The notes: generated by a model not told the origin, from the letters alone. Counted from the stretch's first letter, positions 7,944 through 63,155 are shown. The stretch is 64,000 bases of DNA from Pseudomonadota bacterium (GCA_043767805.1 JAYUGC010000071.1:723-64722); one strand, 5' to 3'. Program-made: numbers and translations.

Positions 7944-7995
7944 TTGCTTTTGTAGCGATCTGCAGCGCCTCCTCGCTCCGCCGTGTAGGCATTTT

Positions 7996-8012
7996 TAGGC
8001 ACAGTGCTTGCA
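7996..8012 (+). promoter_or_regulatory. Sigma-54 (-24/-12) promoter candidate
   Basis: TAGGCAC-AGTGC-TTGCA matches TGGCAC-N5-TTGCW with correct GG-N10-GC spacing, 32 nt upstream of the BON gene. Confidence 0.65.
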
Positions 8013-8044
8013 ATGCGATTCCCACAAGTAAAGGGGAACCGCAA

Positions 8045-8482: not shown

Positions 8483-8487
8483 ATTAA

Positions 8488-9060: not shown

Positions 9061-9084
9061 GGCCCGCTCCCCCGACTCTTTGCC

Positions 9085-9124
9085 AGCGCCCCTGCCGCCC
9101 ACGCGGTGGGGGCGCTATTTTATT
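9085..9124 (+). terminator. Rho-independent terminator
   Basis: AGCGCCCCTGCCGC-CCAC-GCGGTGGGGGCGCT hairpin followed by ATTTTATT. Confidence 0.7.
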
Positions 9125-9199
9125 AGTGCAAAATCAAGTACCTACCTTCACCGAAAAGGAAGTGATCCGGAACTCCAAAACTGGTAGGTTGCCCCACCC

Positions 9200-10405: not shown

Positions 10406-10414
10406 GCTTGTCTC

Positions 10415-11414: not shown

Positions 11415-11448
11415 TTGTCTCGCCGACAGCCGACCTATATAAAGAGGC

Positions 11449-26041: not shown

Positions 26042-28863
26042 ATCGCCACCCCCGTGACTAGAACGGGCCTCAAGTTATCTCTTTTTCCGACGTAATAGGC
26101 CGGGGAAGCGGAAACTTCGAGCAGGGCCGGGTCTTCCGGATGGTATGGCTGGAATTTCCCACGGTAAAAACGCGCAAGCGCGCCCGTAGTCGGATCGACC
26201 AGGACCAGTTGAATCCAATCGTTTTCAACGGCGCGCCGGATGCCCGCGTGGGCCGCGAGCACCTTTTCCATCTTGAAAAGGTCCGTCTCGACCAGAGTCA
26301 GCAAACGCATGGGCTCGTGGATTTCCACCATTTGCAGGGGCAATCCCGCGCGCAAATCGGAGAACGCGCCGTTGGTCACCCCGATGAGACCGGAGATATT
26401 GTGCGGAAGCTTCGTTCCCGAGCCGTACTCTTCGTTATCGACGTAGGAAAAATAGTACTCGAGGCTGATGCCCGCGCACACCGGCACGACGGCGGAAAGG
26501 CTTCGTAGAAGAATGTCTCCGGTCGGGTCCTGGGCGTTGTCGTAAGAGGTCAAAAACGCCCGGCGATCCAGAAATAGCCCTCGCGTCAGCCGCCGAGGCG
26601 CGATGATGAGCGAAGCATTGCTCGCATGACCGCACTCGGGCCGTGGCTCCCGTAGATCCTGGCAACGGCCCTCCACGTGCTGGAGCGCGAGCGGCGCCGA
26701 AAGATGCCTCGCCGAATCAAAACGGCGGCATCTTTCGTGCGCGTCGAACATGCGCGCGCGATTGAGGACCGTGGTCGCATGCTGGAATGCTTGCGCGTGC
26801 GTTTTGGGTACGGAGGCCTCGTCGAAAAAACGCACCGAGTCCGAGCACGTATCGTGCAGCCCGCCGATGAACCAAGTCGTGACGGGAATAATGATTCCCT
26901 TTTCCTTTATGAGAGCGCGCACCGCGGGAAGATTCGCCATCGCGGCGAACGCGCGCGCGTTCGGGCCGCCTCCCCTGCCTCCACAAGCGCCGCAATCGTA
27001 GGCGGACTTGTGAGGGTTATTGGCGCTACTCGATCCGTGTCCCAGGATGACGACGAGACGGGAGAATTTTTTGGTCAGCCCAAGCTCGCCGAGCACCGCC
27101 TGTACGCGCTCCGCCATGTCGGCCACAGAAAAGCCCGCTTGAATTTGGGCATCGGGCGCCGCGGGAACCGCGGTTTCCAGAGCCAGCCCGGTCTCCATTT
27201 CGGGGAGGAACGTCTCCCGCAAAATCCGTTTCAGCCGGCCGCTGAGCCTCGGAGAATGTAAGCGCAGACCGAGCGGCACGACGGCGAGCACACCGCCCGC
27301 GACACTCATCGCGAGCCCCCCCAAGGGATGGCGCGAGCCGTGATGCACGGTCTTTCGCACCGTTCTGACGAGGTGATGGCGTCCCTTCCCGTCTTTTTGC
27401 GCGGGAGAGCGCGGCGCTTCCGAAATGGCATGCTTCGGACGGACCACCACGGGACAAAGGGGCACGGGGAACGAATCGTAAATTCCCTGGTACCACATAT
27501 CGACCGAGAAAAAGCCGGCGATCGAGAACGTCTCGGCGCGCGGATCGGCCTCTTCGAGATGCCGGCGCAAAGACTCCTCCCGCTCGTCGATACAAGTCAC
27601 CAGCTGAACCGAAGGGCCGTCGGCGGAAACCGCGGTCTTAGGCCGGCGCAGATTGATGGCGACCGCATCGAGCACGCGGCAGCGGTACGTGCGCTCGAAA
27701 GCGCGGTGGAGAAAACGGCGCCGAGGCACGTCCGAGAAAGCGTCGATTTCTTCGAGGAGCGCGTTCAGATCCCCGGCCTCACGAATCAGAGGCGCCGAAA
27801 GGCCCACTTGTTGAAAGAAACGAAACGCCTCGTAAACCCGGTGCAAACTCCCGGGCACGCGGCTGCTTGCCGCAGAAGGCTCCAGGCGGGCTTTGAGGGA
27901 AAGCTTGAGTAGTAGCCGGACCGCTAGAAAGTCGGCGAGCGAAGCGCGCACGGGCTGACTGACCAGATGGGGGCGATGCTCGAGAACCGCCATCATGCCG
28001 GCCCAGCCGGGAAGGCAGAGCAGCTCGCGCACGATGAGCGTTTCCCACTCCGCGCGAGGCACGCCGAGGCGGGACAAGCAGAGCTCGCAGGTTTGGAACG
28101 CGTCCCGGCCGTCGAGCTCTTTCCAATTCCACTGGCGAGGGACCCAACGAAGTCCCTCGGGCAAGAAGACTTCCCCGTCCTCCGCCAAAGCCCGGAACGC
28201 GGCTAGAAATCCCTTGTCGCGATCGGGCATCGCCCAGCGAGAGACGCCTTGGTCGAGAAAGGAGGCCGCGAGACGAATCAAAATGCCATTGAGCTCTCCG
28301 GCCTCGGGCGCGTCGGTTTTTTTCTGAGATCTCGCTTCGAATTTCACTCGCGAGCGCAGGACTTCCCAAAGCGCGGACAAAGCTTCCGCGGGGGTCTTGG
28401 CGCCCGACTCAGAGAGAAAGCGCCGGCGCGCCGGCGCTTCGACTCCCTTTTGAAACTCGGTCGCTTCCTTTTTTTCGCGCAGGAGCCAAGTGATGGTCTC
28501 GTCGGCGAAGGGCCGCGACGCAATGGACAACAAGGCTCGCCACACTTCGGTTTGAGAGAGCCGGCCTCCCAAAAAACGACGCCCCGGCGCGGCGCTTTCC
28601 GCATCTGCCAAAGCTAAGATCTCGTCGAGGTCTTGTTCGCGAATGCGGCCCTGGCCCAATTCCTTGAGGTACCGCTCGTGAGTGAGGTAGGGCTCGGAGC
28701 CCCGCATCTCGGCGGCCCATTCGACCATGTCCTCGAACTTTTTGTCCTCGAACGCGACGAGCGGATTCTGATGAATGAAAACGCCGATGGGCCCTTGTTC
28801 GGGCAATAGGCGAGCGGCTTGTTTGACCGCCCCCTCGATAATGTTTCGCGCTTCGCTGTCCAT
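26038..28863 (-). CDS. dabA: DabA/MpsB (DUF2309) beta-CA-like subunit of the inorganic carbon pump
   Basis: PIGVFIHQNPL, CIDEREESLRRHLE, LGHGSSSANNP, YDCGACGG, LFLDRRAFLTSYD, HEPMRL. Confidence 0.92.
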   Translation of the reverse strand: MDSEARNIIEGAVKQAARLLPEQGPIGVFIHQNPLVAFEDKKFEDMVEWAAEMRGSEPYLTHERYLKELGQGRIREQDLDEILALADAESAAPGRRFLGGRLSQTEVWRALLSIASRPFADETITWLLREKKEATEFQKGVEAPARRRFLSESGAKTPAEALSALWEVLRSRVKFEARSQKKTDAPEAGELNGILIRLAASFLDQGVSRWAMPDRDKGFLAAFRALAEDGEVFLPEGLRWVPRQWNWKELDGRDAFQTCELCLSRLGVPRAEWETLIVRELLCLPGWAGMMAVLEHRPHLVSQPVRASLADFLAVRLLLKLSLKARLEPSAASSRVPGSLHRVYEAFRFFQQVGLSAPLIREAGDLNALLEEIDAFSDVPRRRFLHRAFERTYRCRVLDAVAINLRRPKTAVSADGPSVQLVTCIDEREESLRRHLEEADPRAETFSIAGFFSVDMWYQGIYDSFPVPLCPVVVRPKHAISEAPRSPAQKDGKGRHHLVRTVRKTVHHGSRHPLGGLAMSVAGGVLAVVPLGLRLHSPRLSGRLKRILRETFLPEMETGLALETAVPAAPDAQIQAGFSVADMAERVQAVLGELGLTKKFSRLVVILGHGSSSANNPHKSAYDCGACGGRGGGPNARAFAAMANLPAVRALIKEKGIIIPVTTWFIGGLHDTCSDSVRFFDEASVPKTHAQAFQHATTVLNRARMFDAHERCRRFDSARHLSAPLALQHVEGRCQDLREPRPECGHASNASLIIAPRRLTRGLFLDRRAFLTSYDNAQDPTGDILLRSLSAVVPVCAGISLEYYFSYVDNEEYGSGTKLPHNISGLIGVTNGAFSDLRAGLPLQMVEIHEPMRLLTLVETDLFKMEKVLAAHAGIRRAVENDWIQLVLVDPTTGALARFYRGKFQPYHPEDPALLEVSASPAYYVGKRDNLRPVLVTGVAI

Positions 28864-39452: not shown

Positions 39453-41102
39453 ATGCGAAAAGTGAACACGAAGATAAAGCTAAAACGCTTTTCCAGCTCC
39501 CCCCTGCTTAAATCCGCCCGTCCGAATCGGCGGGCCACGCGCCTCATGCGGGTCTATTGGGAACGAAACCTCCTGAAGAATTTCCGTTACGATTTCTCGG
39601 CGTCCATCGTCGTGTTTCTCGTAGCTCTGCCGCTGTGCCTAGGGATCGCCTTGGCCTCGGACGCGCCTCTATTTTCGGGCGTCATTACCGGCATCATCGC
39701 GGGCATGATCGTGGCCTTACTCTCGGGCTCCGAGCTGAGTATCAGTGGGCCGGCGGCGGGCCTCACGGTGATTGTCGCGAGCGGTATCAAATCCGTGGGC
39801 GGGTTCGATGCTTTTCTAGTCGCCGTGGTTCTGGCGGGCGTCTTCCAGTTTATTCTGGGGCTCGTCCGGGCGGGGTCCATCGCGAGCTTATTCCCCTTAA
39901 GCGTAATCAAGGGAATGCTCGTCGCCATCGGCATCACCATCATCCTGAAGCAGATCCCCCATGCGTTAGGAGCCGCGGGAGGCTTTGAGAGCGACATGGA
40001 ATTTCTTTCCTGGCTCGGCAAAGACACGGCCGTGCATCACTTCGCGGCGACTCTCGTCTCTTTCAAAGGCTCTGTGGTGATGATCTCCCTATCGAGCCTC
40101 GCGCTCCTGAGGCTGTGGGACTCGCCGCAGGTCAAGAAGAGCCCCGTGCTCGCCAAGATCCCGGGTCCTTTGCTTGCCGTTCTCTTCGGATCTCTGCTGA
40201 ACGAAATCTTTCAAGTGGGTTTTCCGCATCTCGCGCTCCAAGCGGCCGACGGGCACCTAGTGCAACTCCCTCTGCTTAGTTCGCCGCTCGCCATCTTGAA
40301 CGAGCTGCGCTTTCCCGCGTTTGCGGCCATCAAGAATCAGAACGTTTGGGTTCTCGCCATGACCTTGGCCGCGGTCGGCAGCATCGAGACGTTGCTGTGT
40401 CTCGAATCGACCGACCGTATCGATCCGCAGAAACGCGTCTCAAACCCGAACCGAGAGCTTCTGGCGCAAGGAACCGGCAATATTCTCGCGGGCCTCATCG
40501 GCGGCATTCCGATGACCTCCGTCATCGTGAGAAGCTCGGCGAATATTTACGCCGGGGCCCGCACCCGTATCTCGGGCTTTCTTCATGGCGCCATTCTCCT
40601 TCTCTCGGTGCTGGCGTTACCCTGGTTCTTGAACCACATCCCGCTCGGTTCTTTGGCGGCCATTCTCATCATGGTCGGCTATAAGCTCGCGAGCCCGGCC
40701 CTCTTCAAGAAGATGTGGCAGGGCGGATTGGACCAGTTCATCCCGTTCGCCGTCACGATTGCCGCCATCCTCGCGCTCGACCTGCTGAAAGGCGTGTTGA
40801 TTGGAACCATTTGCGGGCTGATCTTCGTGCTCCGGGCGGGGTACTCGTCGGCCCTTCTAGTGGTGACCGAAGGCAACGACGTTCTCTTTCGCTTCACCAA
40901 GGACGTGACTTTCATTCACAAGGTGAAGCTCCGCAAAGAGCTCGCGTCAATCGAGCCGGGATCGAACGTCATTTTCAACGCGACTCGCGCGACCTACATC
41001 GACAACGACATCATCCAAATGCTGTCCGAGTTTCAGGAGACCGCGGGAAGCCGCGAGCTCCACGTCGAAATGGAAAACGTATTTCAAAAGAAACGGCACT
41101 AA
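39453..41102 (+). CDS. SulP/SLC26 anion transporter, probably bicarbonate
   Basis: VFLVALPLCLGIALAS, ISGPAAGL, NRELLAQG, SVIVRSS, short STAS-like tail; adjacent to carbonic anhydrase; start may be 39546. Confidence 0.92.
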   Translation: MRKVNTKIKLKRFSSSPLLKSARPNRRATRLMRVYWERNLLKNFRYDFSASIVVFLVALPLCLGIALASDAPLFSGVITGIIAGMIVALLSGSELSISGPAAGLTVIVASGIKSVGGFDAFLVAVVLAGVFQFILGLVRAGSIASLFPLSVIKGMLVAIGITIILKQIPHALGAAGGFESDMEFLSWLGKDTAVHHFAATLVSFKGSVVMISLSSLALLRLWDSPQVKKSPVLAKIPGPLLAVLFGSLLNEIFQVGFPHLALQAADGHLVQLPLLSSPLAILNELRFPAFAAIKNQNVWVLAMTLAAVGSIETLLCLESTDRIDPQKRVSNPNRELLAQGTGNILAGLIGGIPMTSVIVRSSANIYAGARTRISGFLHGAILLLSVLALPWFLNHIPLGSLAAILIMVGYKLASPALFKKMWQGGLDQFIPFAVTIAAILALDLLKGVLIGTICGLIFVLRAGYSSALLVVTEGNDVLFRFTKDVTFIHKVKLRKELASIEPGSNVIFNATRATYIDNDIIQMLSEFQETAGSRELHVEMENVFQKKRH

Positions 41103-41128
41103 CACTTTTTACTTTCTAGGAGAAATCC

Positions 41129-41755
41129 ATGGAACCTACTACCAAGCTACTGCTAAACAACAAAGCGTGGGCCCACGAAAAGACCAAGCTCAATCCGAAC
41201 TACTTCAAGGAGCTGTCCAAGGATCAGCAGCCTGAGTTTCTGTGGGTGGGTTGTTCCGATAGCCGCGTTCCCGCCGAGGAAGTCACCGGAACGGAAGCCG
41301 GCCAAATTTTCGTGCATAGAAACATCGCGAACCTCGTCATTCACGCCGACTTCAATTTCCTGAGCGTCCTTCTGTATGCCGTGCAAAATCTGAAGGTCAA
41401 ACACATCATCATTTGCGGTCATTACGGTTGCGGCGGCGTTCGCGCCGCGCTCTCTCGGGAAAACTTCGGCCCCCTCAATAAGTGGATTCACTACATCAAA
41501 GAAGTGGCCCACAAGCACGCGGGCGAGCTCAATGGCCTTAACGACGAAAACGTCTTCAAAAGAATGATCGAATTGAACGTCGAAGAGCAGGTGAAGAACC
41601 TCTCGCGTACGGCGACCATCCAGCGCGCGTGGAAAGAGACGGATGGACCGATGATTCACGGCTGGGTCTTCAATATGGAAGACGGTCTCATCACCTCGCG
41701 GGTAACGATGGGACCAAACTCTCCCGTCGACGCTCCGTTTAAGTTCAGGCTGTAG
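41129..41755 (+). CDS. can: Beta-class carbonic anhydrase
   Basis: WVGCSDSRVP, FVHRNIAN, CGHYGCGG zinc ligands; AGGAG RBS. Confidence 0.95.
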   Translation: MEPTTKLLLNNKAWAHEKTKLNPNYFKELSKDQQPEFLWVGCSDSRVPAEEVTGTEAGQIFVHRNIANLVIHADFNFLSVLLYAVQNLKVKHIIICGHYGCGGVRAALSRENFGPLNKWIHYIKEVAHKHAGELNGLNDENVFKRMIELNVEEQVKNLSRTATIQRAWKETDGPMIHGWVFNMEDGLITSRVTMGPNSPVDAPFKFRL

Positions 41756-50361: not shown

Positions 50362-52296
50362 GTGATAAAAGTGAATGCCTCAGTGCTCCCCTGGTCGCAT
50401 TCCAAAAGTAAACTTCCCCGTGGTCACCGGAGACAGGCGGCGCAGTTCCTTGCTCGGAAAGGATCCACCTTCCGCGTTTTAGGTGAGGCGCTTGGGCGCC
50501 ATAAGCTTTGGCTCGCCTTGATTTATCTGTCGACGCTCCTTCTGGCCGCTTGTGAGGGACTCAGCTATGGACTGATCCTCACCCTGGTCACCGCGGCGTC
50601 CGGCGCCGAGCGGCATGTCGGCCCCGGAATGCTCCACCGCTTCTACGACAGTCTTCTATCGATAATTCCTGGAATCCAAGGCGGCAACGCGTACGTCCCT
50701 CTTTGTATTTTGATAGTGGGACTACAAATTTTACGGGCAGGTATTTACTTCGGCGGATTATCGGCGACGTCCTATATTGCCGCGCGCATCGAGAACGCCA
50801 TTCGGCAGCGGGTCTACGCCGACATCCTCAATCTGCAATTCGCCGAGGTCCGGCGTTACGCCGTAGGCGATTTGTTGTTTTTTATCTCCACGGCTCCCGG
50901 ATCCATCAGGGCACTGCTGACACAGCTCAATACCCTCGCCGCCATGAGCTCCATGTGTCTGGGCTATGGCTTGACTCTGCTCTTCATCAACAAGACCTGG
51001 ACTGGCTTCGTCTTTCTGATTTTCGGTCCCATCGTCTTTTTGCAAAGAATCCTCATTCGTCTGAGTCGCCATGCCGCTCACGCCTCCATAGCCGCAATGG
51101 CGGACATGACACGCAATTCATTGGAAGTATTTCGTAACTTGCGGCTCATTCATGCCTTCGGGCAACAAGAAGAAGCCGTAAAAGCTTTTGCCCGCGTTGG
51201 CCAAGGCATCATCAAGCTCAACACCCGTCGCTGCCTACTAAACGCCAGCGTACAGCCGCTGGCTGAGCTCCTGCTCATCCTCGGCGCGGGCGTACTACTG
51301 GCGATATCGATTCCCCAAAGCACACAGGCGGGGCGCTTCCCTATCGCCAATCTCCTGGTATTCTTGGCGACCCTTCAACGTTTGAGCACCTACACGCGAC
51401 TAGCAGCGGCCACCGCCGTCGACATCACGAATCATTATGCCCCGCTGAAAAGATTGGACGGCCTTCTGGCTCATCCGCCGACCGCATTTATACGTGAGGG
51501 CGGCAAGCCCGTGCACACCTTGAGCCGTGGGATCGTCTTTGAAGACGTGTCCCTGCGCTACAGCCCCGAGCACAAATCTCCGGCGTTGAACCGAATCGAT
51601 TTCGCAATCCACAAAGGCGAGATCATCGCCTTCGTTGGCGATTCCGGCTCGGGCAAGTCGACGCTCGTAGATTTGCTCCTGGGCCTTTACTCGCCGAGCG
51701 AAGGCCGGATTACTATCGATGGCGAGGACCTGGAGACAATCGACCTCAAGTCCTGGCGGCGCCTTGTCGGCACGGTAAGCCAGGACACCGTCCTCTTTAA
51801 CGACACGGTCGAAGCGAATTTAAGATGGGGAGCTCCCGAAGTCTCCGCGAAGGAGTTGGTCGAGGCGGCAAAGCTGGCGAATGCCCACGACTTCATCACG
51901 AGCCTCCCCAAGGGATATCAAACCGAGATCGGGGACAACGGACAAAGCCTCTCCGGAGGCCAGCGCCAAAGACTGGCTTTGGCGCGTGCTTTGGCGATTA
52001 AACCGCAACTCTTGGTATTAGACGAAGCGACCAGCGCTTTGGACAGCGAATCAGAGCGTTTGATACAAAATGCCCTCGAAAATATCCGGCACCAGCTGAC
52101 GATCGTGATGGTGGCTCATCGCCTGTCGACGATAACCAGCGCCGACCGCATCGTAGTACTGCGGCACGGCCAAATCATCGAGCAGGGAACTCATCAAGAG
52201 CTCATCACGCTTTCTGGACAGTATGCGAAACATTGGTCAATCCAGTCGCACCTGCCTCCCGAGTCTGCCGCCAGGCAAGAGAGCCGGCCATCCTAG
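50362..52296 (+). CDS. ABC exporter, fused permease/ATPase (MsbA/PglK-like)
   Basis: TM domain, GDSGSGKST, LSGGQRQR, LDEATSALD, AHRLST. Confidence 0.92.
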   Translation: MIKVNASVLPWSHSKSKLPRGHRRQAAQFLARKGSTFRVLGEALGRHKLWLALIYLSTLLLAACEGLSYGLILTLVTAASGAERHVGPGMLHRFYDSLLSIIPGIQGGNAYVPLCILIVGLQILRAGIYFGGLSATSYIAARIENAIRQRVYADILNLQFAEVRRYAVGDLLFFISTAPGSIRALLTQLNTLAAMSSMCLGYGLTLLFINKTWTGFVFLIFGPIVFLQRILIRLSRHAAHASIAAMADMTRNSLEVFRNLRLIHAFGQQEEAVKAFARVGQGIIKLNTRRCLLNASVQPLAELLLILGAGVLLAISIPQSTQAGRFPIANLLVFLATLQRLSTYTRLAAATAVDITNHYAPLKRLDGLLAHPPTAFIREGGKPVHTLSRGIVFEDVSLRYSPEHKSPALNRIDFAIHKGEIIAFVGDSGSGKSTLVDLLLGLYSPSEGRITIDGEDLETIDLKSWRRLVGTVSQDTVLFNDTVEANLRWGAPEVSAKELVEAAKLANAHDFITSLPKGYQTEIGDNGQSLSGGQRQRLALARALAIKPQLLVLDEATSALDSESERLIQNALENIRHQLTIVMVAHRLSTITSADRIVVLRHGQIIEQGTHQELITLSGQYAKHWSIQSHLPPESAARQESRPS

Positions 52297-53324
52297 TGCG
52301 AAAAACTTCCGAACCGACCGTCACGGTCATGATGCCGGTTCATAACGTCGCCCCCTTTCTCAGGACTTGCCTTCGCAGCGTTCTTGCACAGACCTTTAAG
52401 GATTTCGAGATAGTTGCGATTGATGACGGCAGCACGGATGGGAGCTGGGAGATCCTGCACGCGCAGCCTCACCCGGCCCTGCGGATCGAGCGCCAGGAGA
52501 ACCAAGGGATCGCCCGGACGCGCAACACCATCCTCGAGCGCGCCCGCGGTCGCTATATCGCCGTTATGGATCCGGATGACGTAGCGTTTCCGGACCGCCT
52601 CGCGCGGCAAGTGGAGTTCCTTGAAGCAAACCCGGATTGCGCCATAGTCAGCGGCCAGGTCGTCGAAATCGATGAGATAGGCCGTATTTTATCGGCTTGC
52701 CGGACCACGCCCGCACGGCCTTCGTTCGATCGCGCGACGCTCGCGGCAAAACCGAACCAGATGCTGTGCTGGCATAGCGCAGCCATGCTGCGGGCAAGCG
52801 CCGTTCGCGCCATCGGAGGCTACGACGAGGCCTTTCGAAATTACGCCGAGGACCTGGATCTCTTCGAAAGGATCGCGGCGACGAGCCGCATCGCCAACCT
52901 GAACGCACCGATGATCTACTATCGCATCCGGCGGAGCAGCGCCATCACCCGGTACCGAGAGTTGAACTCGCTGCACCGGCAGGCGGCCCACGGCGCGGCA
53001 GCCGACTCTAGCGCCGGAGCGCGCGACAGGGCTCAGGCAGATTTGCGCCGGCGGGTCGACGAGCACGAACGGAGACTCACCGCGGCCCGCCTGGAGCGAA
53101 GTTACCAAAACCGCATCGGGTGGGCGGCCTTACGCGGAGAGCAGTGGGCCCTAGCTAGAGCCGCCTTTTTTCGCAGCGCTTCGCCCCCTCTTCTTCTGCC
53201 ATCCCTAAAAGGAATCGTGAAAGCGTGTCTCGGCACGATCGGACTGCTTGCGAAGTGGCACCCGGTCGAACGGCTCGAGGGATCGAGGGATCAGTTTCGA
53301 AGCTACCTCGAAGAGCTGGGATGA
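52296..53324 (+). CDS. Glycosyltransferase family 2
   Basis: VTVMMPVHN, IDDGSTD, MDPDD, AEDLDL; GTG overlaps the ABC gene stop. Confidence 0.9.
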   Translation: MRKTSEPTVTVMMPVHNVAPFLRTCLRSVLAQTFKDFEIVAIDDGSTDGSWEILHAQPHPALRIERQENQGIARTRNTILERARGRYIAVMDPDDVAFPDRLARQVEFLEANPDCAIVSGQVVEIDEIGRILSACRTTPARPSFDRATLAAKPNQMLCWHSAAMLRASAVRAIGGYDEAFRNYAEDLDLFERIAATSRIANLNAPMIYYRIRRSSAITRYRELNSLHRQAAHGAAADSSAGARDRAQADLRRRVDEHERRLTAARLERSYQNRIGWAALRGEQWALARAAFFRSASPPLLLPSLKGIVKACLGTIGLLAKWHPVERLEGSRDQFRSYLEELG

Positions 53325-54937
53325 AACGACGGCGATGAGGGCGAAACCGTTTCTAGATCGCACTCCTCGACCTTCAGATGGAACCCCGTGGCATTTAGGC
53401 AATGACCGGTTTTCAGATCGAAGCAGAATCGGTGCGCCAGGCAGGTGATGGTGCCGTCCGGATTGAGACGGCCGTTAGTCGCGAGGTCAGCCCCGGCGTG
53501 GGGGCAATAGCGCTGTATTTTAAATGTCCTGCCGCCAACTTCCACCACCATCATTTCCTTGTCGCCTTGGTCGGAGAGGCTCACGCACTCATAGCTTTCC
53601 AGCTGAGACAATACTTCGGAATCATAGCAACGGAGCAGGGTCTTCAAGTGAGGCACGAATCGATCGCTACTTTCATCAAAGCGCGCTCGTAACGACAAAA
53701 AAATGTCGTCCCAAGTCGCCTTTCCGGCCAGGACATCGCTAAGAAGCGAGGCTGGGACCGCGATCCGGTAGAGGGCGTCCTCGGCGGTACCGAAGTAAGT
53801 CGCCTTTTTACGAAAATCGACGACCAGGGACTTACTCTCCCGCTCGCCCTCGATCTCAAAACAGATTTTCCCCGGAATGGTGGCGCTTATGTACTCGGAC
53901 AGAAAGGGGAGCGCCGCGAAGTGATCGAGCAGATTATTCTCCTCAGGCAGCTCTCCTCGCTGGAACGACAAGACGTCGCGCCTCCTATCGGCGTAATCCT
54001 TGAGGTATCGCTCTCGATTCGTATAAGGAAGCATTCGCTCCGATCCTTCGTGCAACTCTTGTTGGCAGTTCGACCAGAGTCGCGCTTCGGTGAGCTCATC
54101 ACCCGGAAGCGCGAAGTAACACCGCCCCGCCACATCAGGCCTGTGAATCGCGTAATGCTCTAGAATGTCGAGCTGGTCTGGAAAGACCGAGAATTCCGAT
54201 TTTTCGTTGAAGGCACCCAAACCGGCGCCAAGGAACACCGGCGGACCGGCGAAGAACAGGATCCGTTCAGGATTTAGGGCGTCGATCGCCCTTAGGCAGG
54301 CCTCCCATTTGCTGCGTCTCTTTTCGACGGAAGCTCGTCGCATCTCGCTAGCGGAGTACGAATAGTTGATCGGATATTCGCTCGCCCCCGAACCTTGCAG
54401 CGCGAGAACGCGAATCTTCTTGGCGCTCGATTTGATCGCCGCCAGTTGTCGCGTGGAAAGACGGGCGTCGTTCAGGTTCACGAGCGCTTCGCCCTCCCGA
54501 CAAAAAACGATGGCAGCGTCGAAGTGCGCGGGCGACTCCTCCGGCACGAAGTACACCTGGCCACCGCCGGCCAGATCGAATGGCTCAAAGGCCGAGTGCT
54601 CACGGATTCGGTCGCGAAAGCGGGGTAGCTCTCGATCGACTTTTCGTTTAAACCACGCCGTCGCATAATTGGGAATATGCAACGACAACGTCGGATTTCT
54701 CTCTAGAGCGAGCGTTAGGGTCTGCGGATCGAAATGGTCCGCGTGATTGTGCGAGACGCAGATGTCCGTGACCGATTCCAAGGCTTGATTGAGAAACGGA
54801 TAGTTTTCAGGGAACTGGAACCAAGAAGAGAAGAACGCCCCGCTTCGGGAAAACCAGGGGTCAAAGAGGCAGGCCCGCTCACTTCCGACTTTCAAGCAAG
54901 CATGACCGAAGAAACGAATTTCCAAGCCCGCGCTCAT
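53303..54937 (-). CDS. NamH-like hydroxylase: MBL-fold domain plus C-terminal Rieske [2Fe-2S]
   Basis: GHAC, DPW, SWFQFP, SHNHADHFD, NLNDAR, AGPPVFL, FPDQ, QRYCPH...CLAH. Confidence 0.8.
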   Translation of the reverse strand: MSAGLEIRFFGHACLKVGSERACLFDPWFSRSGAFFSSWFQFPENYPFLNQALESVTDICVSHNHADHFDPQTLTLALERNPTLSLHIPNYATAWFKRKVDRELPRFRDRIREHSAFEPFDLAGGGQVYFVPEESPAHFDAAIVFCREGEALVNLNDARLSTRQLAAIKSSAKKIRVLALQGSGASEYPINYSYSASEMRRASVEKRRSKWEACLRAIDALNPERILFFAGPPVFLGAGLGAFNEKSEFSVFPDQLDILEHYAIHRPDVAGRCYFALPGDELTEARLWSNCQQELHEGSERMLPYTNRERYLKDYADRRRDVLSFQRGELPEENNLLDHFAALPFLSEYISATIPGKICFEIEGERESKSLVVDFRKKATYFGTAEDALYRIAVPASLLSDVLAGKATWDDIFLSLRARFDESSDRFVPHLKTLLRCYDSEVLSQLESYECVSLSDQGDKEMMVVEVGGRTFKIQRYCPHAGADLATNGRLNPDGTITCLAHRFCFDLKTGHCLNATGFHLKVEECDLETVSPSSPSFHPSSSR

Positions 54938-55001
54938 ATTTCCATTCACCAAGACGGATTTCAGGAAGGGTACCAGAAACCAGGGAAAACCACGAGAATG
55001 T

Positions 55002-57075: not shown

Positions 57076-57729
57076 ATGACGTCCACCACGGGAGACAACT
57101 TCATGCCAGCGCTTTCCTCTCCTCACTCCTTTCGCCTCATGCCATTCTCGTCGATGGACGGGATGTCGATTGACGGCTCCGTGGAAGTCGCGACCGATGG
57201 CGTTATCCTCCGGTACCGCTTGAAGGCATCGACGAAAATCCGGATCCTGGTGCCAGAGCGCGCGGCGAGTCCCACCTTCCTCGAAGGCCTCTGGAACCAA
57301 ACTTGTTTTGAATGCTTTGTGAGCCGAGGAGACGACGCTAAATACCTGGAATGGAACTTAGCGCCGAGTGGACACTGGGCGACGTTCGCTTATGCCGGCT
57401 ACCGCCAACGTCTGCCGCTCGCGGAAACCGAGTTACCTGCCTTCAAGCCGGAGATTACCGTCGAGTGTCCTGCCATGACCTCCGGAAGGACATCCCTGAC
57501 CTTGTGCGCGACGCTGCCGATGAGCGGGCTCCGAAATTTCTGGGGTGTCGACAGCGGCCCTTTTGTTTTCGGTATCAGCGCCGTCGTCGCCACCCGCCGC
57601 GCCTTACTCGGCTTGCGCCGAGGACCTCGCTCTTATTGGGCACTCGTCCACGAACGGGATATTCCCGACTTTCACGTACGGAGCTCTTTCATTCTGGAGT
57701 TGGGCGAGCGGACAAAAAATGAGTCCTAG
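57076..57729 (+). CDS. DOMON-like domain protein
   Basis: LWNQTCFECF, YLEWNLAPSGHW...GYR, SYWALVH...PDFH...SF. Confidence 0.75.
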   Translation: MTSTTGDNFMPALSSPHSFRLMPFSSMDGMSIDGSVEVATDGVILRYRLKASTKIRILVPERAASPTFLEGLWNQTCFECFVSRGDDAKYLEWNLAPSGHWATFAYAGYRQRLPLAETELPAFKPEITVECPAMTSGRTSLTLCATLPMSGLRNFWGVDSGPFVFGISAVVATRRALLGLRRGPRSYWALVHERDIPDFHVRSSFILELGERTKNES

Positions 57730-58390
57730 CGTTAGTCGCGGCAAGGCGCAGGTATTCCCTGCGGGTGTCATCTCGCAAAACGATACTGACATTGGCATCG
57801 TGAATACGCCGCTTGAGTACGGTCTCCTTCAGCATTCGCGTCCTGAGACCGATGCGCTGAGCTCTGGCCCACCAATCTAAAAATTGAGTGTAGAGGTAAG
57901 CCGTGTCAAAGAGACCGACGCGATCGAACGCCGCGCGCCGGATTAAGAGAGCGCCGGCGAGCTGACAAGGCTGCGCGCCTTCGGGGCAAAAGCGCTGCGT
58001 TTGCGCGTTATTTTCGATGTCCGGGCTGACGAACGATTCGATGTAACCGAAGCAGCCATCGAGACTCTCGTCGCTCTGCAGGGCTTCCAGCTGTAACGCT
58101 CGGCGGCCCGGGGTCCAAAGATCGTCGGCATCAAGAAACGATAAATAGGCACCCCGCGCTGCTTTCACGCCCACGTTCATGCCGAGACAGCTGCCCACGC
58201 CAGGCTCGACAAGCAGCTGGACGGAATCGCCGAAGCGCCGTACTACTTCGACGGTCCGGTCGGTCGACGCACCGTCGACAACCAAGACCTCGAATGGCTT
58301 TGGCGATTGGCTCAAAACACTCTCCAGGGCTTGAGCAATATAACGCTCACCGTTCTTGACCGGCATAACGACGGATACTTGAGAGCTCAT
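57689..58390 (-). CDS. Glycosyltransferase family 2
   Basis: VSVVMPVKN, VDGASTD, FLDADDLW, RRIHDAN. Confidence 0.9.
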   Translation of the reverse strand: MSSQVSVVMPVKNGERYIAQALESVLSQSPKPFEVLVVDGASTDRTVEVVRRFGDSVQLLVEPGVGSCLGMNVGVKAARGAYLSFLDADDLWTPGRRALQLEALQSDESLDGCFGYIESFVSPDIENNAQTQRFCPEGAQPCQLAGALLIRRAAFDRVGLFDTAYLYTQFLDWWARAQRIGLRTRMLKETVLKRRIHDANVSIVLRDDTRREYLRLAATNARTHFLSARPTPE

Positions 58391-58507
58391 GATGGATGCG
58401 TCCTTATATGCCCTTATGAGCAATGCAGGAAAGTTGTGCGACCAATCGAGACTTTTGTTATTATGCCGTCACACCCAACTGAGTTCAATATTGCTTCGAG
58501 GTTCTTT

Positions 58508-58969
58508 ATGCGTCGCACTGATGTATGGGTCATCAACAGGCCTGGCGTAATCAGCGAAGTGGTCGATGGAGAAACCATTGCGATCAACTTGCAGAACGGA
58601 ATCTATTACAGCTTCAACAAGGCGGGTTCCTACGTCTGGCAATTAATTGAGTGTGGGCGAACGCTCGATTCAATCGCCGTAGCCGTCGCCGAGGCCGCGG
58701 TGCAACCCACCGCCGGCGTCAGGGCCGAAGTGCTCCAGTTCACCGGGCAGCTCGTCGCTGAAGGGCTGATTTCAGGCGCCGACGACAGCGTCTCCAAGAC
58801 GTCGCCTCAATCACCTGTGGTCGACGCTGTGGTCGACGCTTCGCTCGTCGACTACGAGCCACCCCAGTTCCAGAAATTCGAGGACCTAAATACTCTCCTT
58901 CTCGCGGATCCGATCCACGACGTGGGTGAGATGGGCTGGCCGAACGTCAAGACGCCGCAGCCGGAATAG
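58508..58969 (+). CDS. PqqD-family (RRE-like) protein with C-terminal DPIHxV..GWP tail
   Basis: EVVDGETIAINLQNGIYYSFNKAGSYVWQLI...LVAEGLI, then YEPPQFQKFEDLNTLLLADPIHDVGEMGWP. Confidence 0.85.
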   Translation: MRRTDVWVINRPGVISEVVDGETIAINLQNGIYYSFNKAGSYVWQLIECGRTLDSIAVAVAEAAVQPTAGVRAEVLQFTGQLVAEGLISGADDSVSKTSPQSPVVDAVVDASLVDYEPPQFQKFEDLNTLLLADPIHDVGEMGWPNVKTPQPE

Positions 58970-60193
58970 ATGTCCCAGGTCACGCTCCGCGGGCTCCACC
59001 GAGGAAGTCTCATGTACTCTCATTTTCCCAATCCAACGCAGCTTGATTTTTTGAACGCGTCGCTTTTGGTTGGCTCTCCCGCACTCGCGGCGTGGGAACG
59101 CTGGAAGGGCAAAGTCGACATCGAGCGCCTGGACATCGGTACGTACCGACTCTTGCCGCTTCTCTACCTGAACCTCAGCCGCCACGGCATGCAAGACCCC
59201 CTCATGACGCGGCTCAAAGGCGCCCATCGTTTTACTTGGGTCAAGAACCACCGGCTACAACTCGCGGCGGCGGCGATCGCCCAGGCCTTAAGCGATGGCG
59301 GGGTGCCGCTGCTGTTCTTTAAGGGATTGCCCCTCGTCGTCGACTGCTACGCGGATTTCGGTAGCCGCCAGATGCAGGACGTCGATGTGCTCATACCAGA
59401 GGCGTCGATTCCCCGTACCTTCGAGATCATGCTCAATCACGGGTGGATCGTCGACATCCCGCGCTTACGGAATCTGAACGACCCGTGGTCCAAAGGGTTT
59501 GTGAAGTACATTAACGGTTGCGACTTCCGGGATCCGCATCGCCAGACCGTGGATTTGCACTGGCGGCTCCTTCCTGAGAACTGCGACCCGTCCCTCAGTC
59601 AGAGTTTCTGGGACGAAGCCCGGCCCTTCGAGTTCCACGGCGTAAAAGCCAAGAGGTTGCGCCCGGAAGACATGCTGATCCACCTGATGCTGCATGGGTC
59701 GAGACGCGACGCCACGCCGCCCTTTCGCTGGATCGCGGACACGAGCTTGCTGCTCAAGCGATACGGAGACGATTTCGACTGGCGCTTCGTACGCGAGCGC
59801 TGTCTTTCCATGGACGTCGTGCTGGTCGTGCGCAGAAGCCTCGAGTTCTTACAAAAACATTTTGCGCTCGATACCGCCGCGCAAGGCGTAGAGGCGCTGG
59901 CCAGCGTGAAGACGACGGAGCGAGCTGCGTGGGAGTACAAGATCAACGCGCAAAGGAGCGACGCCTTACGAGAAGCTTGTTTCTTTTGGAACCGATACCG
60001 ACGCATCCGGCGGACGCACCCTCAGGCGTTGTCGATCTTCGGTTTCTTCAGGTACCTGCAGTACCTGGCGAAACTGGATTCGATCTTCGATATTCCAAGG
60101 CACGCGCTGAACAAGGCGGGAAAACTCCTCTTTGGCGTATCGTCGAAAGAAGCCCACGCCGGCCTTCTGCCTGACGGCCGCACCACCGTATGA
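58970..60193 (+). CDS. Nucleotidyltransferase family protein (NTP_transf_5-like)
   Basis: LFFKG...Y...GSRQMQDVDVLI, VDLHW; start may be 59012. Confidence 0.85.
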   Translation: MSQVTLRGLHRGSLMYSHFPNPTQLDFLNASLLVGSPALAAWERWKGKVDIERLDIGTYRLLPLLYLNLSRHGMQDPLMTRLKGAHRFTWVKNHRLQLAAAAIAQALSDGGVPLLFFKGLPLVVDCYADFGSRQMQDVDVLIPEASIPRTFEIMLNHGWIVDIPRLRNLNDPWSKGFVKYINGCDFRDPHRQTVDLHWRLLPENCDPSLSQSFWDEARPFEFHGVKAKRLRPEDMLIHLMLHGSRRDATPPFRWIADTSLLLKRYGDDFDWRFVRERCLSMDVVLVVRRSLEFLQKHFALDTAAQGVEALASVKTTERAAWEYKINAQRSDALREACFFWNRYRRIRRTHPQALSIFGFFRYLQYLAKLDSIFDIPRHALNKAGKLLFGVSSKEAHAGLLPDGRTTV

Positions 60194-60211
60194 CACCGAG
60201 GGTAGCAGACA

Positions 60212-61306
60212 ATGCAATTTGCCTATTTACGCGATTCGCGTACCTATAGCTCGATTCCCGCGGACGCCCGATCGGAGTTTCGTCGCCAGGTCGAAGCGAG
60301 CCGAGACGGCGCGTTTGAGAGCGGCGGCGGAACGCGGCTATACGAGGTCGCCGGCCGAAAGCTATGCGTTCGATATGCGGACGACCGCGTGTTCGAGCGG
60401 ATGTCCCGGGCGATAGCCCATCTGGAGACGAGCCTCGAGCCTTCGATCGATCTCACGGTGTATGCCTGGGACGCCCAGCGGTCCTTCTTTCCGGCGTTAC
60501 CGTGGCAAGCCACCGACGTCAGCTACCGGGGCGACGTTCAGCTACAAGGAATCAACACCGAGGGATGCTTCGTCGCCCACCGGCTCGGAGAAAAAATCCT
60601 TACCCTATTCGACAAGAACGCCCGTACCGCCTACGTATGGACCGAAGACATCCAGACAGTGCCGAACTGGGCCATGGGCGCGCCGCTTCGCACCCTCTTC
60701 CACTTATGGCTGACGGACGAAGGCCTGCAGATGGTGCACGGCGCGGTGGTCGGCCTGGATGGAACCGGCGTGTTACTGACGGCGCGAGGCGGGTCCGGCA
60801 AGTCGACGACCGCCGTCTTGTGCCTACAAAACGGGATGCTATATGTCGGCGACGATTATATTGCGGTGGCCTTCGACGAAGCGAGGCCAGTCGCGCACAG
60901 TCTGTACAATACGGGGAAATTGCATCGCCACGTTGCCGCGGCCTTTCCCGATTTCGCCACGGCGCCCGTCGATGCGTCCGAGTCCAATGACGACAAGCAG
61001 ATCTTCTATATCAACGAAGGTGCCTTCGCTGACCGATTGGAAAATCGGTTACCTCTTGGGGCAGTCATGGTGCCGATCATCGTAGATAAGGCCGAGACCA
61101 TCGTTCGGCCGATACACGGTGCCATCGCCCTCGCGGCTCTCGCGCCGACGACGATGACTCAGCTGCCCTACTGCGGAGAAAAGTCGCTGCGAAACTTAAG
61201 ACAGCTCGTCGAGCGGGTTCCCTGTTTCGCCTTGGAGCTCGGAAGACGGCCGAGCGGCGTCCTCGACGCTATCCGCTCTCACCTTGACGGCCTCCGGTCC
61301 TCTTAA
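60212..61306 (+). CDS. HPr-kinase-related P-loop kinase
   Basis: VHGAVV...GVLLTARGGSGKSTT...YVGDD. Confidence 0.85.
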   Translation: MQFAYLRDSRTYSSIPADARSEFRRQVEASRDGAFESGGGTRLYEVAGRKLCVRYADDRVFERMSRAIAHLETSLEPSIDLTVYAWDAQRSFFPALPWQATDVSYRGDVQLQGINTEGCFVAHRLGEKILTLFDKNARTAYVWTEDIQTVPNWAMGAPLRTLFHLWLTDEGLQMVHGAVVGLDGTGVLLTARGGSGKSTTAVLCLQNGMLYVGDDYIAVAFDEARPVAHSLYNTGKLHRHVAAAFPDFATAPVDASESNDDKQIFYINEGAFADRLENRLPLGAVMVPIIVDKAETIVRPIHGAIALAALAPTTMTQLPYCGEKSLRNLRQLVERVPCFALELGRRPSGVLDAIRSHLDGLRSS

Positions 61307-62002
61307 ATCTTGGTTCGTTGACTGGGCGGCCCGCTCACGCTCCAGCTTGCGCCGGATGGCGCTCAAAATACCGACGTTTACCGATTCGAAGTTGGCCGAC
61401 ATACCGTTTGTGCGGCGATACAGCACGGAGGCGCCCTGATAGGGAATGGTGGTGATCCCGCGCTCACAACATCTCAGGTACCAGTCGAGGTCCTCGGCGA
61501 AGCGCAGCGCGGGAGACGGATCAAACACACCGCACCGGACGAAGAGGGAGGCGCGAAAGAGCGCGTTTACGGGGCTGAAAGGCCCGAGGTTCTCCGCCCC
61601 CACCGCCGCCTCGCGCGGCGAATAGCCACCGAGTCTATGAATCTGTCCCCGCACTATGTCGGCCTCGGGATGATTCACCATCAAGGCGACCATGTTCGAC
61701 AGGCGATCGACGGGCCAAAGGTCGTCGGCATCCAGGAAGGCGATGAGGCCGCCTTTGGAATTTTTGATTCCTAGGTTACGCGCGGCTCCGGGCCCCTGAT
61801 TGCGCTGATGCAAAAGCACGATCCGGTCATGATAACCAGCGAGCCGCTCCACCGTGCCATCTATCGAGCCGTCATTGACGACGATAACTTCGAAATTTTG
61901 ATAGGACTGCGCGAAAACGCTTTTGAGCGTCTCCTCGATATAGGCCTCGCAGTTATAGGCAGGAATGATGACGGATACCAGGGTCTCGGTCGTGTCCGAC
62001 AT
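61196..62002 (-). CDS. Glycosyltransferase family 2
   Basis: VSVIIPAYN, VNDGSID, ARNLG, FLDADDLW, AEDLDW. Confidence 0.9.
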   Translation of the reverse strand: MSDTTETLVSVIIPAYNCEAYIEETLKSVFAQSYQNFEVIVVNDGSIDGTVERLAGYHDRIVLLHQRNQGPGAARNLGIKNSKGGLIAFLDADDLWPVDRLSNMVALMVNHPEADIVRGQIHRLGGYSPREAAVGAENLGPFSPVNALFRASLFVRCGVFDPSPALRFAEDLDWYLRCCERGITTIPYQGASVLYRRTNGMSANFESVNVGILSAIRRKLERERAAQSTNQDLRGPEAVKVRADSVEDAARPSSELQGETGNPLDELS

Positions 62003-62111
62003 TGTCGTCTCCCTATCGTTGGGTCGTTTGCGGAATCAGTTTTGATTGCAGCAGCAGGGGGAGAGTAGCAGCTCCGTGTATCGCGCATGAGGCCGCAGAC
62101 AGTGGCTCAGA

Positions 62112-63155
62112 TCATAGACCGGTCTGAGTCACCAGAGCTTGCAGGCGATCCAGGAGTCTAAGAGCGTAGCTTCTATATCGTAGCATGGTCCCCCGACCTA
62201 AAAACAGATAGGTCCCGATGAGATCGTAGACACGCAGAAGGGCCTGATGATCGTAGGCTCCTTGCAAGACGGAAAGCGGGGTATCCCGGTGGAGCGTCGA
62301 CGTCCGGTGGTAATGCAACAGACTGGCTTGACGAAGCGTCTCGGTAATCTCGATCTGCGGATCTTCGAGAAGGCTCGCCAGATCGTGAAGGCAGGGCCCG
62401 ATCTTCGTATCTTGATAGTCGATAAAAAAGCATTTCTCTTGGTGAAACAAGAGATTGGTACTCTGGAAATCCGAGTGTACGAGGCAGCGGCGCTCACCGG
62501 TCGCGAGTATGAGCTCGACGAGTCGCCGAAGCGTTTGCCGCGATAGGGCTCTAGCGGTTTCGCCGTGGCCAGGTGGCATCCACTTGTGGATGCGCGCCAG
62601 GCTCAGGTCGACTCGTCGTCGAAGATAGGCGGCATCCATCTTATCCAGCCGAGCTCGGCGAGTAAAATTGTCGGCATCCAGGGCTTGAATCTGACAGAGC
62701 ACGTCGATCGCGAGGGGAAGACGATCGATTAGGCCCGGAGACGAGGCGAGCGACGTGTCACCCAGGTCTTGGAACACAAAGAATCCGTACTGAAGCTGCG
62801 AATGGCGTAAGCGCGGAACCGGCGCGCCATACGACGAGTAGAGAGCGCTCAGCTGAGCGAATCGACGGCGCCGTGTGGCGTTCGGATGAGGATCATCGCA
62901 AAAAATCAGCGACTCTCCGGTCGTCACCAGGCGGTAGTAGTGTCGATCCGAAGCCTGCTGGGGGATCTCAGTCCGACGGGCATGACCCAAGTTGAGCGAG
63001 TCAAGGAAGCGTCGCTCCTTAGCCCGCCTGAGGCCCTGCGGGGCTCGGAGCGCCGCCCAAGTCTTAATCAATACGGACCTCAATCCGCCCCAATCAGCGC
63101 GGCCGGCGCCGAGCCGTTTAATCAGCCGAGCCTCTTTGTTAATAGATTCGCCCAA
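62112..63155 (-). CDS. APH-family phosphotransferase, AmgK-like anomeric sugar kinase
   Basis: ASDRHYYRL, QDLGD, HSDFQSTNL, IDYQD..IGP..HDLASLL; true start probably downstream of 63155. Confidence 0.75.
   Translation of the reverse strand: MGESINKEARLIKRLGAGRADWGGLRSVLIKTWAALRAPQGLRRAKERRFLDSLNLGHARRTEIPQQASDRHYYRLVTTGESLIFCDDPHPNATRRRRFAQLSALYSSYGAPVPRLRHSQLQYGFFVFQDLGDTSLASSPGLIDRLPLAIDVLCQIQALDADNFTRRARLDKMDAAYLRRRVDLSLARIHKWMPPGHGETARALSRQTLRRLVELILATGERRCLVHSDFQSTNLLFHQEKCFFIDYQDTKIGPCLHDLASLLEDPQIEITETLRQASLLHYHRTSTLHRDTPLSVLQGAYDHQALLRVYDLIGTYLFLGRGTMLRYRSYALRLLDRLQALVTQTGL

Follow-up and report, generated by a model that had tools for sequence, protein, structure and literature searches.

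A widespread gene cassette in which a RiPP recognition element carries a conserved, leader-like tail

What does a leader-recognition protein recognise when its gene cluster encodes no separate precursor peptide? The question is raised by a stretch of DNA from a Pseudomonadota bacterium (GCA_043767805.1 JAYUGC010000071.1:723-64722; "the window" below, 64,000 nucleotides in full), in which positions 58508-61306 are filled by three open reading frames (ORFs), all in the same direction (+). They encode an RRE (recognition element for RiPPs, peptides made by ribosomes and modified post-translationally) with a precursor-like tail, a nucleotidyltransferase of family PF14907, and a P-loop kinase with the fold of HPr kinase (HprK) and phosphoenolpyruvate carboxykinase (PEPCK); small family 2 glycosyltransferases (GT2s) flank the trio. 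An initial annotation of the sequence had described this trio as distinct from a lasso peptide cluster, which Pfam and genome searches bear out. We find that the tail-bearing RRE, the kinase and the GT2s form a widespread cassette that has not previously been characterised. The trio, its flanking GT2s and probably an MsbA-like exporter are probably one copy of it, and the cassette, judged by analogy with homologous enzymes, probably makes a phosphate-linked sugar product without a separate precursor peptide. As to the tail itself, we tentatively favour, at a probability of roughly 0.45, a role as a built-in (cis) leader through which the enzymes are assembled or activated.

Anatomy, conservation and predicted structure of the RRE-tail protein

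The first ORF is open from 58307 to 58969 (+), beginning with a TTG at 58307, and a start at the ATG at 58508 fits the family alignment. The resulting protein aligns over residues 2-151 with residues 2-145 of its closest relative, P0002. It comprises an RRE, a variable linker, a leader-like motif and a conserved distal tail (Table 1); the tail from the motif onwards, YEPPQFQKFEDLNTLLLADPIHDVGEMGWP, corresponds by translation to residues 116-145 (58853-58942). The PqqD domain, the linker with a 12-bp tandem duplication and this tail had all been described before, and each is recovered by Pfam, Tandem Repeats Finder (TRF) or translation, the duplication encoding VVDA VVDA. A further, imperfect 12-bp tandem repeat (2.0 copies, 83% matches) lies at 58674-58697, within the RRE-coding part.

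Conservation was counted in an alignment of 129 single-domain members (A2), namely the window protein and 128 relatives, with which it aligns end to end and whose invariant residues it carries without exception. Conservation is strongest in the tail and moderate in the RRE core; the linker, which is 18-31 amino acids (aa) long across the family (median 24), is unconserved. D134, P135, H137, W144 and P145 are found in 129 of 129 members, and D126 and G143 in 128. Counting from the Asp of DPIH, the residue at offset -18 is aromatic in 122 of 129 (F in 85, Y in 34, W in 3), that at -15 is Pro in 127 and that at -13 is L, F, I, V or M in 126. As judged from the alignment, this conservation is far beyond chance. 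The YxxP start of the tail had been likened to the YxxPxL motif that RREs bind in lasso leaders, and the likeness extends to the whole family as a [FYW]xxPx[LFIV] motif at fixed spacing; the class [Y/W]xxPx[L/V/I/F/A] is described as what the RREs of lasso and linear polyphosphorylated peptide (LPP) clusters bind (PMC13381572). No NCBIfam model reached its cut-off for any protein of the trio, the best being lasso_PqqD_Bac (36 against 80 bits), the RRE protein had no match to TIGR04353 or TIGR04248 at E<=0.01, and the ESM Atlas returned generic "PqqD family" clusters only.

With A2 as input, AlphaFold2 (AF2) modelled the RRE-tail protein at a mean predicted local distance difference test (pLDDT) of 85 and a predicted template modelling score (pTM) of 0.76. 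By region, pLDDT was about 95 for the RRE, about 60 for the linker, 86-90 for residues 111-130 and 60-78 for the DPIH..GWP end. The model contains a strand at residues 121-124 and a helix at residues 127-132. DSSP assigns a strand only inside a beta-ladder and, because all remaining strands belong to the RRE, the modelled tail is paired with the RRE sheet. The partner is probably the RRE edge strand, by analogy with solved complexes rather than from inspected coordinates. Docking of the tail in the RRE cleft, which had been put forward as a matter for prediction, is thus favoured by AF2, which pairs the motif with the sheet. Foldseek placed the RRE closest to leader-bound TbiB1 (5v1u/5v1v; template modelling (TM) score 0.91, 26-27% identity), and a profile search of the PDB retrieved TbiB1 (E 4.6e-18), 9x90_B (3.9e-14) and 9x8z_B (3.1e-7), the last two being PbaB1 and LppB (PMC13381572). 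Among the solved chains matched, none covers the tail.

The kinase was modelled at pLDDT 87 and pTM 0.89. It superposes best on ATP-dependent PEPCK (Foldseek TMq 0.5-0.58), above HPr kinase/phosphorylase (HprK/P; TMq 0.32), and its profile match to HprK/P in the PDB (E 3.6e-7) is confined to about 55 residues around the P-loop, ARGGSGKS (residues 191-198, 60782-60805). The match to PF07475 (Hpr_kinase_C; E 1.2e-6) falls below the cut-off, at 28.7 against 33.3 bits, as do the scores for TIGR04352 (HprK_rel_A; 25.3 against 200), TIGR04355 (21.8 against 200) and TIGR04249 (18.1 against 125). A likeness to HprK/P is seen in the P-loop and flanking strands, and one to ATP-PEPCK in the overall two-domain fold.

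A complex of the two proteins was predicted from the kinase alignment (A3) and A2, with the RRE-tail protein as the scored partner. The runs gave 0.85, 0.81 and 0.77 (median 0.81), against 0.00 for the best of three controls; the runs share at least 64% of contacts, and the pLDDT of the partner was at least 73. The benchmark mark is reached by 116 of 157 solved complexes and by 2 of 215 mismatched pairs, figures that serve as a rough guide here since our own alignments were used. To our knowledge there is no solved complex of an RRE with a kinase for the model to have memorised. On the kinase side the confident interface takes in residues 302-334 (helices 303-317 and 323-335), 4-8, 105 and R192-G193 at the start of the P-loop, and on the partner side RRE residues 11-35 and tail residues 124, 126, 127 and 131. 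The prediction supports binding of the kinase by the RRE sheet and the tail helix, and the predicted partner is thus an RRE, unlike the HPr of HprK/P.

Gene linkage and distribution of the cassette

A word-based search with the single protein retrieved, besides itself, just one relative, and an exhaustive search was needed; among 1.84 billion representatives it gave 3,943 representative matches at E<=1e-3 and 1,696 at E<=1e-10. The best 150 matches are nearly all 140-155 aa long, and their alignments span roughly residues 8-148. When one genome per species was scanned with a pattern, at least 600 stretches matched, at least 573 of them confirmed by tblastn, and 80 loci were kept. By their record titles these come from Chloroflexota, Acidobacteriota, Alpha- and Gammaproteobacteria, Cyanobacteriota, Patescibacteria, Planctomycetota, Verrucomicrobiota, Nitrospirota, Bacteroidota, Bacillota, Actinomycetota and others, with one metagenome-assembled genome of Bathyarchaeia; Nostoc, Oscillatoria and Kaistia are among the genera named. 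The survey of DPIH.V...GWP proteins and their neighbours proposed in the initial annotation thus turns up a large family, linked to the kinase, GT2s and PF14907.

Many of the 80 RRE-anchored loci are cut by contig ends. Even so, a kinase is present in 70, a GT2 in 74 (median two per locus), a PF14907 protein in 52 and an ATP-binding cassette (ABC) exporter in 35. Where at least 6 kb was available on each side (49 loci), the counts were 48 for GT2, 46 for the kinase, 36 for PF14907 and 24 for the exporter, with all four in 17. In 40 of the 80 loci no more than 200 bp separate the RRE stop from the kinase start, and in 12 the kinase is fused to a C-terminal GT2. Five clean operons have the same content: RRE-tail protein, kinase, two or three GT2s of 230-290 aa, ABC exporter and PF14907. 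In the reverse test, 80 metagenome loci were anchored on the kinase; a tail-bearing RRE occurs in 63 of them (57 of the 61 whose upstream side extends for at least 600 bp), adjoining the kinase in 46 and sharing its ORF in three. Because the linkage runs both ways, the RRE-tail protein and this kinase subfamily form an obligate pair. The small GT2s are likewise core, obligatory members, as had been supposed from the two that flank the trio in the window. The other glycan genes of the window were considered as cassette parts and rejected: counterparts of its APH-type kinase, sulfotransferase-like, metallo-beta-lactamase-Rieske, LegC-like and SGNH proteins and of the ORF at 57076-57729 occur in 0-1 of the 80 loci, and LegB in eight.

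Several relatives carry these parts in other arrangements. Three proteins of 780-850 aa (P0020, P0037 and P0039) join RRE-tail, two more RREs and the kinase in a single chain, and P0003, P0006, P0012, P0022 and P0035 contain two or three tandem RREs. In the tandem-RRE proteins a leader-like motif follows each RRE by about 25 residues, and the full DPIH..GWP sequence occurs in one unit only; P0012 and P0035 end instead in a DPP variant that lacks the His. These forms imply that the leader-like motif belongs to each RRE, that the distal tail is needed only once, and that it need not be C-terminal.

A separate conserved precursor was sought and rejected. When 1,159 ORFs of 25-120 aa from the 80 loci were clustered by blastp, a procedure that short variable peptides could escape, no conserved small ORF emerged; the clusters consisted solely of alternative-frame shadows of the RRE gene and of GT2 fragments. 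Searches for stand-alone tail peptides gave no match with the window protein and six matches of 32-70 aa with the profile. At least two of the six begin within the RRE, and each of the six may be a fragment or have a miscalled start, so that the idea of split genes was set aside as unsupported.

Within its own lineage the cassette is patchy, since none of 40 relatives of the window's genome (4.52 Mb, 204 contigs, 100% complete, 2.8% contamination), a same-genus genome included, contains a full-length match; with its own, 41 genomes were searched. Two same-family genomes encode RRE proteins (G006:C5:68718-69080 and G002:C266:1882-2262) that match profile positions 5-129 only and have the leader-like motif and the helix without the DPIH..GWP end; they may represent a truncated-tail subfamily. 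In the literature searched for PqqD/RRE with HPr kinase, nucleotidyltransferase or glycosyltransferase, for PF14907 and for fused leaders, no tail-bearing RRE cassette is described. The terms HPr and nucleotidyltransferase are absent from two RRE-mining papers, and "kinase" is absent from PMC7470986, the one in which that term was searched.

Related systems and the role of the tail

The cassette probably shares toolkit descent with the tailoring enzymes of paeninodin-type lasso clusters and of LPP clusters. The paeninodin kinase is described as phosphorylating the C-terminal Ser of its precursor, and the pseudomycoidin nucleotidyltransferase as adding one or two hexoses onto that phosphate (PMC8498205). 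Like paeninodin and pseudomycoidin clusters, the window has an HprK-family kinase and a nucleotidyltransferase as tailoring enzymes and a YxxPxL-type motif, and its RRE is of the lasso B1 type by both PF05402 and the TbiB1 match, with lasso_PqqD models scoring under their cut-off. The remainder of a lasso pathway is missing. The absence of a B2 protease and a cyclase, previously noted for the window, holds genome-wide: PF13471 has no match in the whole genome, and the sole strong PF00733 match, on contig C89, adjoins an aspartate kinase gene and scores as a housekeeping asparagine synthase (TIGR01536, 410 bits against a cut-off of 267) rather than as a lasso cyclase (NF033535, 168 against 525). 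There is also no precursor with a Ser-ended core, and no leader motif in any frame of the window besides the RRE's own tail, so that neither the cyclase nor the separate precursor that might have undone the original interpretation was encountered in these searches. We therefore reject a lasso cluster, and also a paeninodin-like C-terminal Ser in the tail family itself, in which Ser is the last residue in only 13 of 129 members.

The closest known system is the LPP cluster, lppA-K-B-S-D-N, described from Bacillota within capsule loci (Popov et al., Nat Commun 2026, PMC13381572). As presented there, the precursor leader reads YxxPxVLxHQxIxFETxxS, LppB is an RRE, LppK is Ser-specific and polyphosphorylates only Ser3 of the core, LppS is an SpI-like leader peptidase (archaeal-type signal peptidase I), and LppD is an MsbA-like exporter; LppN, like pbaN, belongs to PF14907 (supplement file 1 of that paper) and showed no activity, and the end product of the pathway is not identified in the paper. 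Shared with LPP clusters are a discrete lasso-type RRE, a PF14907 protein (Table 1), the polysaccharide-locus setting, the lack of a macrolactam cyclase, and an RRE-binding motif of the class given above with a beta-strand after its Pro. The kinase is probably HprK-like as LppK is, being placed in the same superfamily by Pfam, NCBIfam and profile matches rather than by comparison with an LppK sequence. An MsbA/HepA-like exporter, a possible cassette member, lies 6 kb upstream in the window. In contrast to LPP clusters, the leader-like motif is here fused to the RRE with no separate precursor, an invariant Asp stands where LPP carries the phosphorylated Ser, small GT2s are core members, and the distribution covers many phyla rather than Bacillota alone. 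Nor is there an SpI-like leader peptidase on the window's contig: TIGR02228 has four weak matches in the genome, none on this contig, and no S24/S26 peptidase was matched among the 35 window ORFs scanned with Pfam. A regular-expression search found no LPP-type leader in the six frames of the window. For want of this peptidase and leader, LPP membership was rejected. The HPr-rel-A/SynChlorMet-type cassettes (TIGR04352, TIGR04353, TIGR04249 and TIGR04248) differ as well, as the kinase and PqqD proteins miss the model cut-offs.

Two further RRE/kinase/PF14907 loci occur in the window's genome, on contig C23 (5154-9151) and on contig C134 (29000-48000; locus 7972-11705). Each combines a radical-SAM/SPASM enzyme and an HprK/PEPCK-like protein with a short PqqD protein that lacks the DPIH..GWP tail, and each has a weak match to archaeal-type signal peptidase I; weak ScmC/HprK_rel_B matches occur at C23 only. 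These two loci resemble LPP or SynChlorMet cassettes more than the window's copy does.

Given the observed anatomy, family-wide conservation and two-way linkage, what could the tail do? In the mechanism that we tentatively favour, the motif Y116-F121 would fold back and add a strand to the RRE sheet, like free leaders in lasso and LPP complexes. The self-loaded RRE is predicted to dock through its beta-sheet face on the two C-terminal kinase helices, an arrangement that would bring the helix of the tail (D126-L131) to the opening of the kinase P-loop and leave the invariant DPIHDV..GWP end available for contact with the kinase or with the enzymes that act next. The RRE-tail protein would then be an obligate subunit without catalysis of its own, one that brings together or switches on the kinase, the GT2s and the PF14907 enzyme. 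With no need of a leader-bearing precursor, these enzymes would build a phosphate-linked sugar product, if their chemistry follows that of the homologues LppK/PadeK and PsmN. The acceptor may be a glycan, a lipid-linked sugar or a leaderless protein, in any case one not encoded as a peptide in the cassette, and the ABC transporter, where present, would export the product.

Laboratory in-cis leader fusions, such as those of lanthipeptide and cyanobactin systems, offer a comparable design. In microviridin ATP-grasp ligases, engineered fusions of this kind are described as making the RiPP enzymes constitutively active (PMC8141463, on Reyna-Gonzalez 2016). As in these constructs, the leader motif here is covalently attached to the leader-binding protein, and the substrate would need no leader; unlike them, the arrangement is natural and ancient and includes an extra invariant segment, and activation is our proposal. 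Relative to known RRE-guided phospho-glycosyl tailoring, the new elements would be a natural cis-leader and the lack of a precursor.

The initial annotation had proposed instead a self-leadered scaffold that is phosphorylated, nucleotidylated and then glycosylated. The self-leadered part agrees with the leader-like motif on the RRE; the tail as acceptor of these modifications is not the best-fitting account, given the near-invariance of the tail, the lack of a conserved Ser, Thr or Tyr, the internal position of the tail in fusions and the lack of a peptidase. A cis-leader is favoured over a self-substrate because no hydroxyl is conserved in the tail. Across the 129 members no Ser, Thr or Tyr is invariant there; 31 have no Ser or Thr at tail positions 120-133, one has no Ser, Thr or Tyr in the entire 30-residue tail, and 10 have no Ser in the linker or C-terminal extension, so that a conserved Ser/Thr acceptor in tail, linker or C-terminal extension was rejected. 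A compensating swap between positions 125 and 129 (E125 and T129 in the window protein) was unsupported, since the E/T combination occurs in one of 129. Near-invariance across phyla fits an enzyme-contact surface more readily than a RiPP core.

Several points weigh against a cis-leader, and the first of them speak for the alternative that the tail is itself the substrate, its self-bound leader presenting the distal tail to the kinase, with the phosphate or activated group extended by the PF14907 enzyme and GT2s into a phospho-glycosylated protein or a glycogenin-like, protein-primed glycan. All characterised homologues of the kinase and of the PF14907 enzyme are described as modifying an RRE-bound peptide, LppK and PadeK on Ser and PsmN on phospho-Ser (PMC13381572; PMC8498205), and by parsimony the tail would then be a substrate. 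The offset of D134 from the aromatic anchor Y116 is 18 residues, identical to that of S3 from Y-16 in LppA, which may be meaningful or a coincidence. At tail position 125, 80 of 129 members have Thr or Ser and 37 have Asp or Glu, a pattern compatible with a phosphosite. Moreover, any acceptor other than the tail is hypothetical. Structure prediction does not discriminate between substrate and activator; the DPIH..GWP end is placed with low confidence and is not named in the interface, and the RRE strand that pairs with the tail is inferred rather than read from the coordinates. Also in keeping with a self-substrate are the lack of a separate precursor in the window and the 80 related loci, the presence of both tail residues 124-131 and P-loop residues 192-193 in the confident predicted interface, and the obligatory, sometimes kinase-fused GT2s. 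We nevertheless regard it as rather unlikely. Besides the missing hydroxyl, residue 125 of the window protein is itself Glu; LppK is described as taking only Ser (PMC13381572); the tail may lie inside a 780-850 aa fusion with the kinase; there is no peptidase on the window's contig, and an exporter in only 35 of 80 loci; and near-invariance across phyla is unusual for a RiPP core.

An improbable variant would keep self-priming and dispense with the hydroxyl: the kinase would activate the invariant Asp134 or His137, on which the PF14907 enzyme and GT2s would build a phosphate-linked glycan. If true, this would be a glycogenin-like protein-primed glycan made via acyl- or imidazole-phosphate chemistry in more than ten phyla.

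We consider it equally improbable that the tail is an autoinhibitory pseudo-leader, displaced by a poorly conserved precursor that is encoded elsewhere and is the true substrate. The RRE, of the lasso B1 type by its fold and profile matches, should be capable of binding free leaders; blastp clustering would miss short variable peptides; and the loci on C23 and C134 carry radical-SAM enzymes and SpI-like peptidases. However, a scan of every frame of the window gave no leader motif of LPP or lasso type, the 80 loci share no small ORF family, stand-alone tail peptides are scarce at best (the six short matches are mostly fragments), and the tail is invariant beyond the docking motif, which simple autoinhibition does not need. 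Finally, the notion that the trio is a passenger or remnant in an ordinary polysaccharide locus, without joint function with the GT2s, is very improbable: the neighbours are typical glycan genes (LegB-like, LegC-like, sulfotransferase-like, SGNH and APH-type kinase) and the cassette is patchy, with a full-length match in its own genome only among the 41 searched, but the linkage runs both ways across many phyla with translational coupling and gene fusions, the three ORFs are intact with their catalytic motifs conserved, and the other local glycan genes seldom accompany the cassette.

Layout of the locus and wider meaning

Table 1. Features of the cassette copy and of the RRE-tail protein, in window coordinates.
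Feature	Position	Strand	Product or basis
RRE-tail gene	58508..58969	+	153 aa; PF05402 E 3e-10 (residues 89-155 of long ORF)
RRE (PqqD-like winged helix), residues 1-90	58508..58777	+	AF2, Foldseek, profile against PDB
Variable Ala/Pro/Ser-rich linker, residues 91-115	58778..58852	+	unconserved in family alignments
12-bp exact tandem duplication in linker	58815..58840	+	TRF: period 12, 2.2 copies, 100% matches, score 52
Leader-like motif YEPPQF, residues 116-121	58853..58870	+	family form [FYW]xxPx[LFIV]
Conserved distal tail, residues 122-145 (helix 127-132, then DPIHDV...GWP)	58871..58942	+	alignment of 129
PF14907 (NTP_transf_5) nucleotidyltransferase gene	58970..60193	+	407 aa; PF14907 E 1.2e-43
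HprK/PEPCK-fold P-loop kinase gene	60212..61306	+	364 aa; PF07475 28.7 bits, below cut-off
Small GT2, divergent from RRE gene	57689..58423	-	244 aa; PF00535 E 5.4e-25
Small GT2, convergent with kinase gene	61196..62002	-	268 aa; PF00535 E 2e-36
MsbA/HepA-like ABC exporter, possible cassette member, 6 kb upstream	50362..52296	+	644 aa; ABC_membrane and ABC_tran
Third GT2, adjoins exporter, possible cassette member	52233..53324	+	363 aa; PF00535 E 1e-34

In the window's copy (Table 1) the TAG of the RRE-tail gene directly abuts the ATG of the PF14907 gene, and the kinase gene begins 18 bp past the end of the latter. As called, the 3' ends of the kinase gene (+) and of the GT2 gene convergent with it (-) share 111 bp (61196-61306). 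A promoter and terminator scan of 57500-62200 gave no signal exceeding shuffled expectation. The exporter scores 396 bits with HepA_fam_ABC and 375 bits with MsbA, both under the model cut-offs.

The cassette lies in a glycan locus that runs from 41.9 kb to past 64 kb and holds, with the exporter, further GT2s, LegB- and LegC-like enzymes, a sulfotransferase-like protein, an SGNH protein and an APH-type kinase. Between the LegC-like gene and the divergent GT2 gene is a putative 217-aa ORF (57076-57729, +) with no Pfam or NCBIfam match and no counterpart in the 80 loci. A 549-aa protein (53303-54952, -), which also sits in the glycan locus without being a conserved companion of the cassette, combines a weak N-terminal metallo-beta-lactamase-fold match, under the Pfam cut-off, with a C-terminal Rieske [2Fe-2S] domain. 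Elsewhere in the window are a DabA/DabB-type pair for inorganic-carbon uptake (23523-28863, -; DabA PF10070 E 3.6e-225) with two Proton_antipo_M proteins, a beta-carbonic anhydrase with a SulP transporter (39453-41755), and a 2,016-aa ORF at the window start (181-6231, -).

RREs are treated as hallmarks of peptide natural products, and genome mining looks for the adjoining precursor. Here, the RREs of a very large group that spans phyla bear a leader of their own, with no separate precursor beside them, so such clusters are mis-scored as "orphan". If the tail is indeed a cis-leader, nature would have anticipated the laboratory trick of leader-enzyme fusion, and RiPP-type recognition machinery would be linked to glycan or envelope decoration. 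If the tail is instead its own substrate, the cassette would represent a new kind of protein-primed phospho-glycan. On either reading, it provides a testable system for the activity of PF14907 and for the end product of LPP-like pathways.

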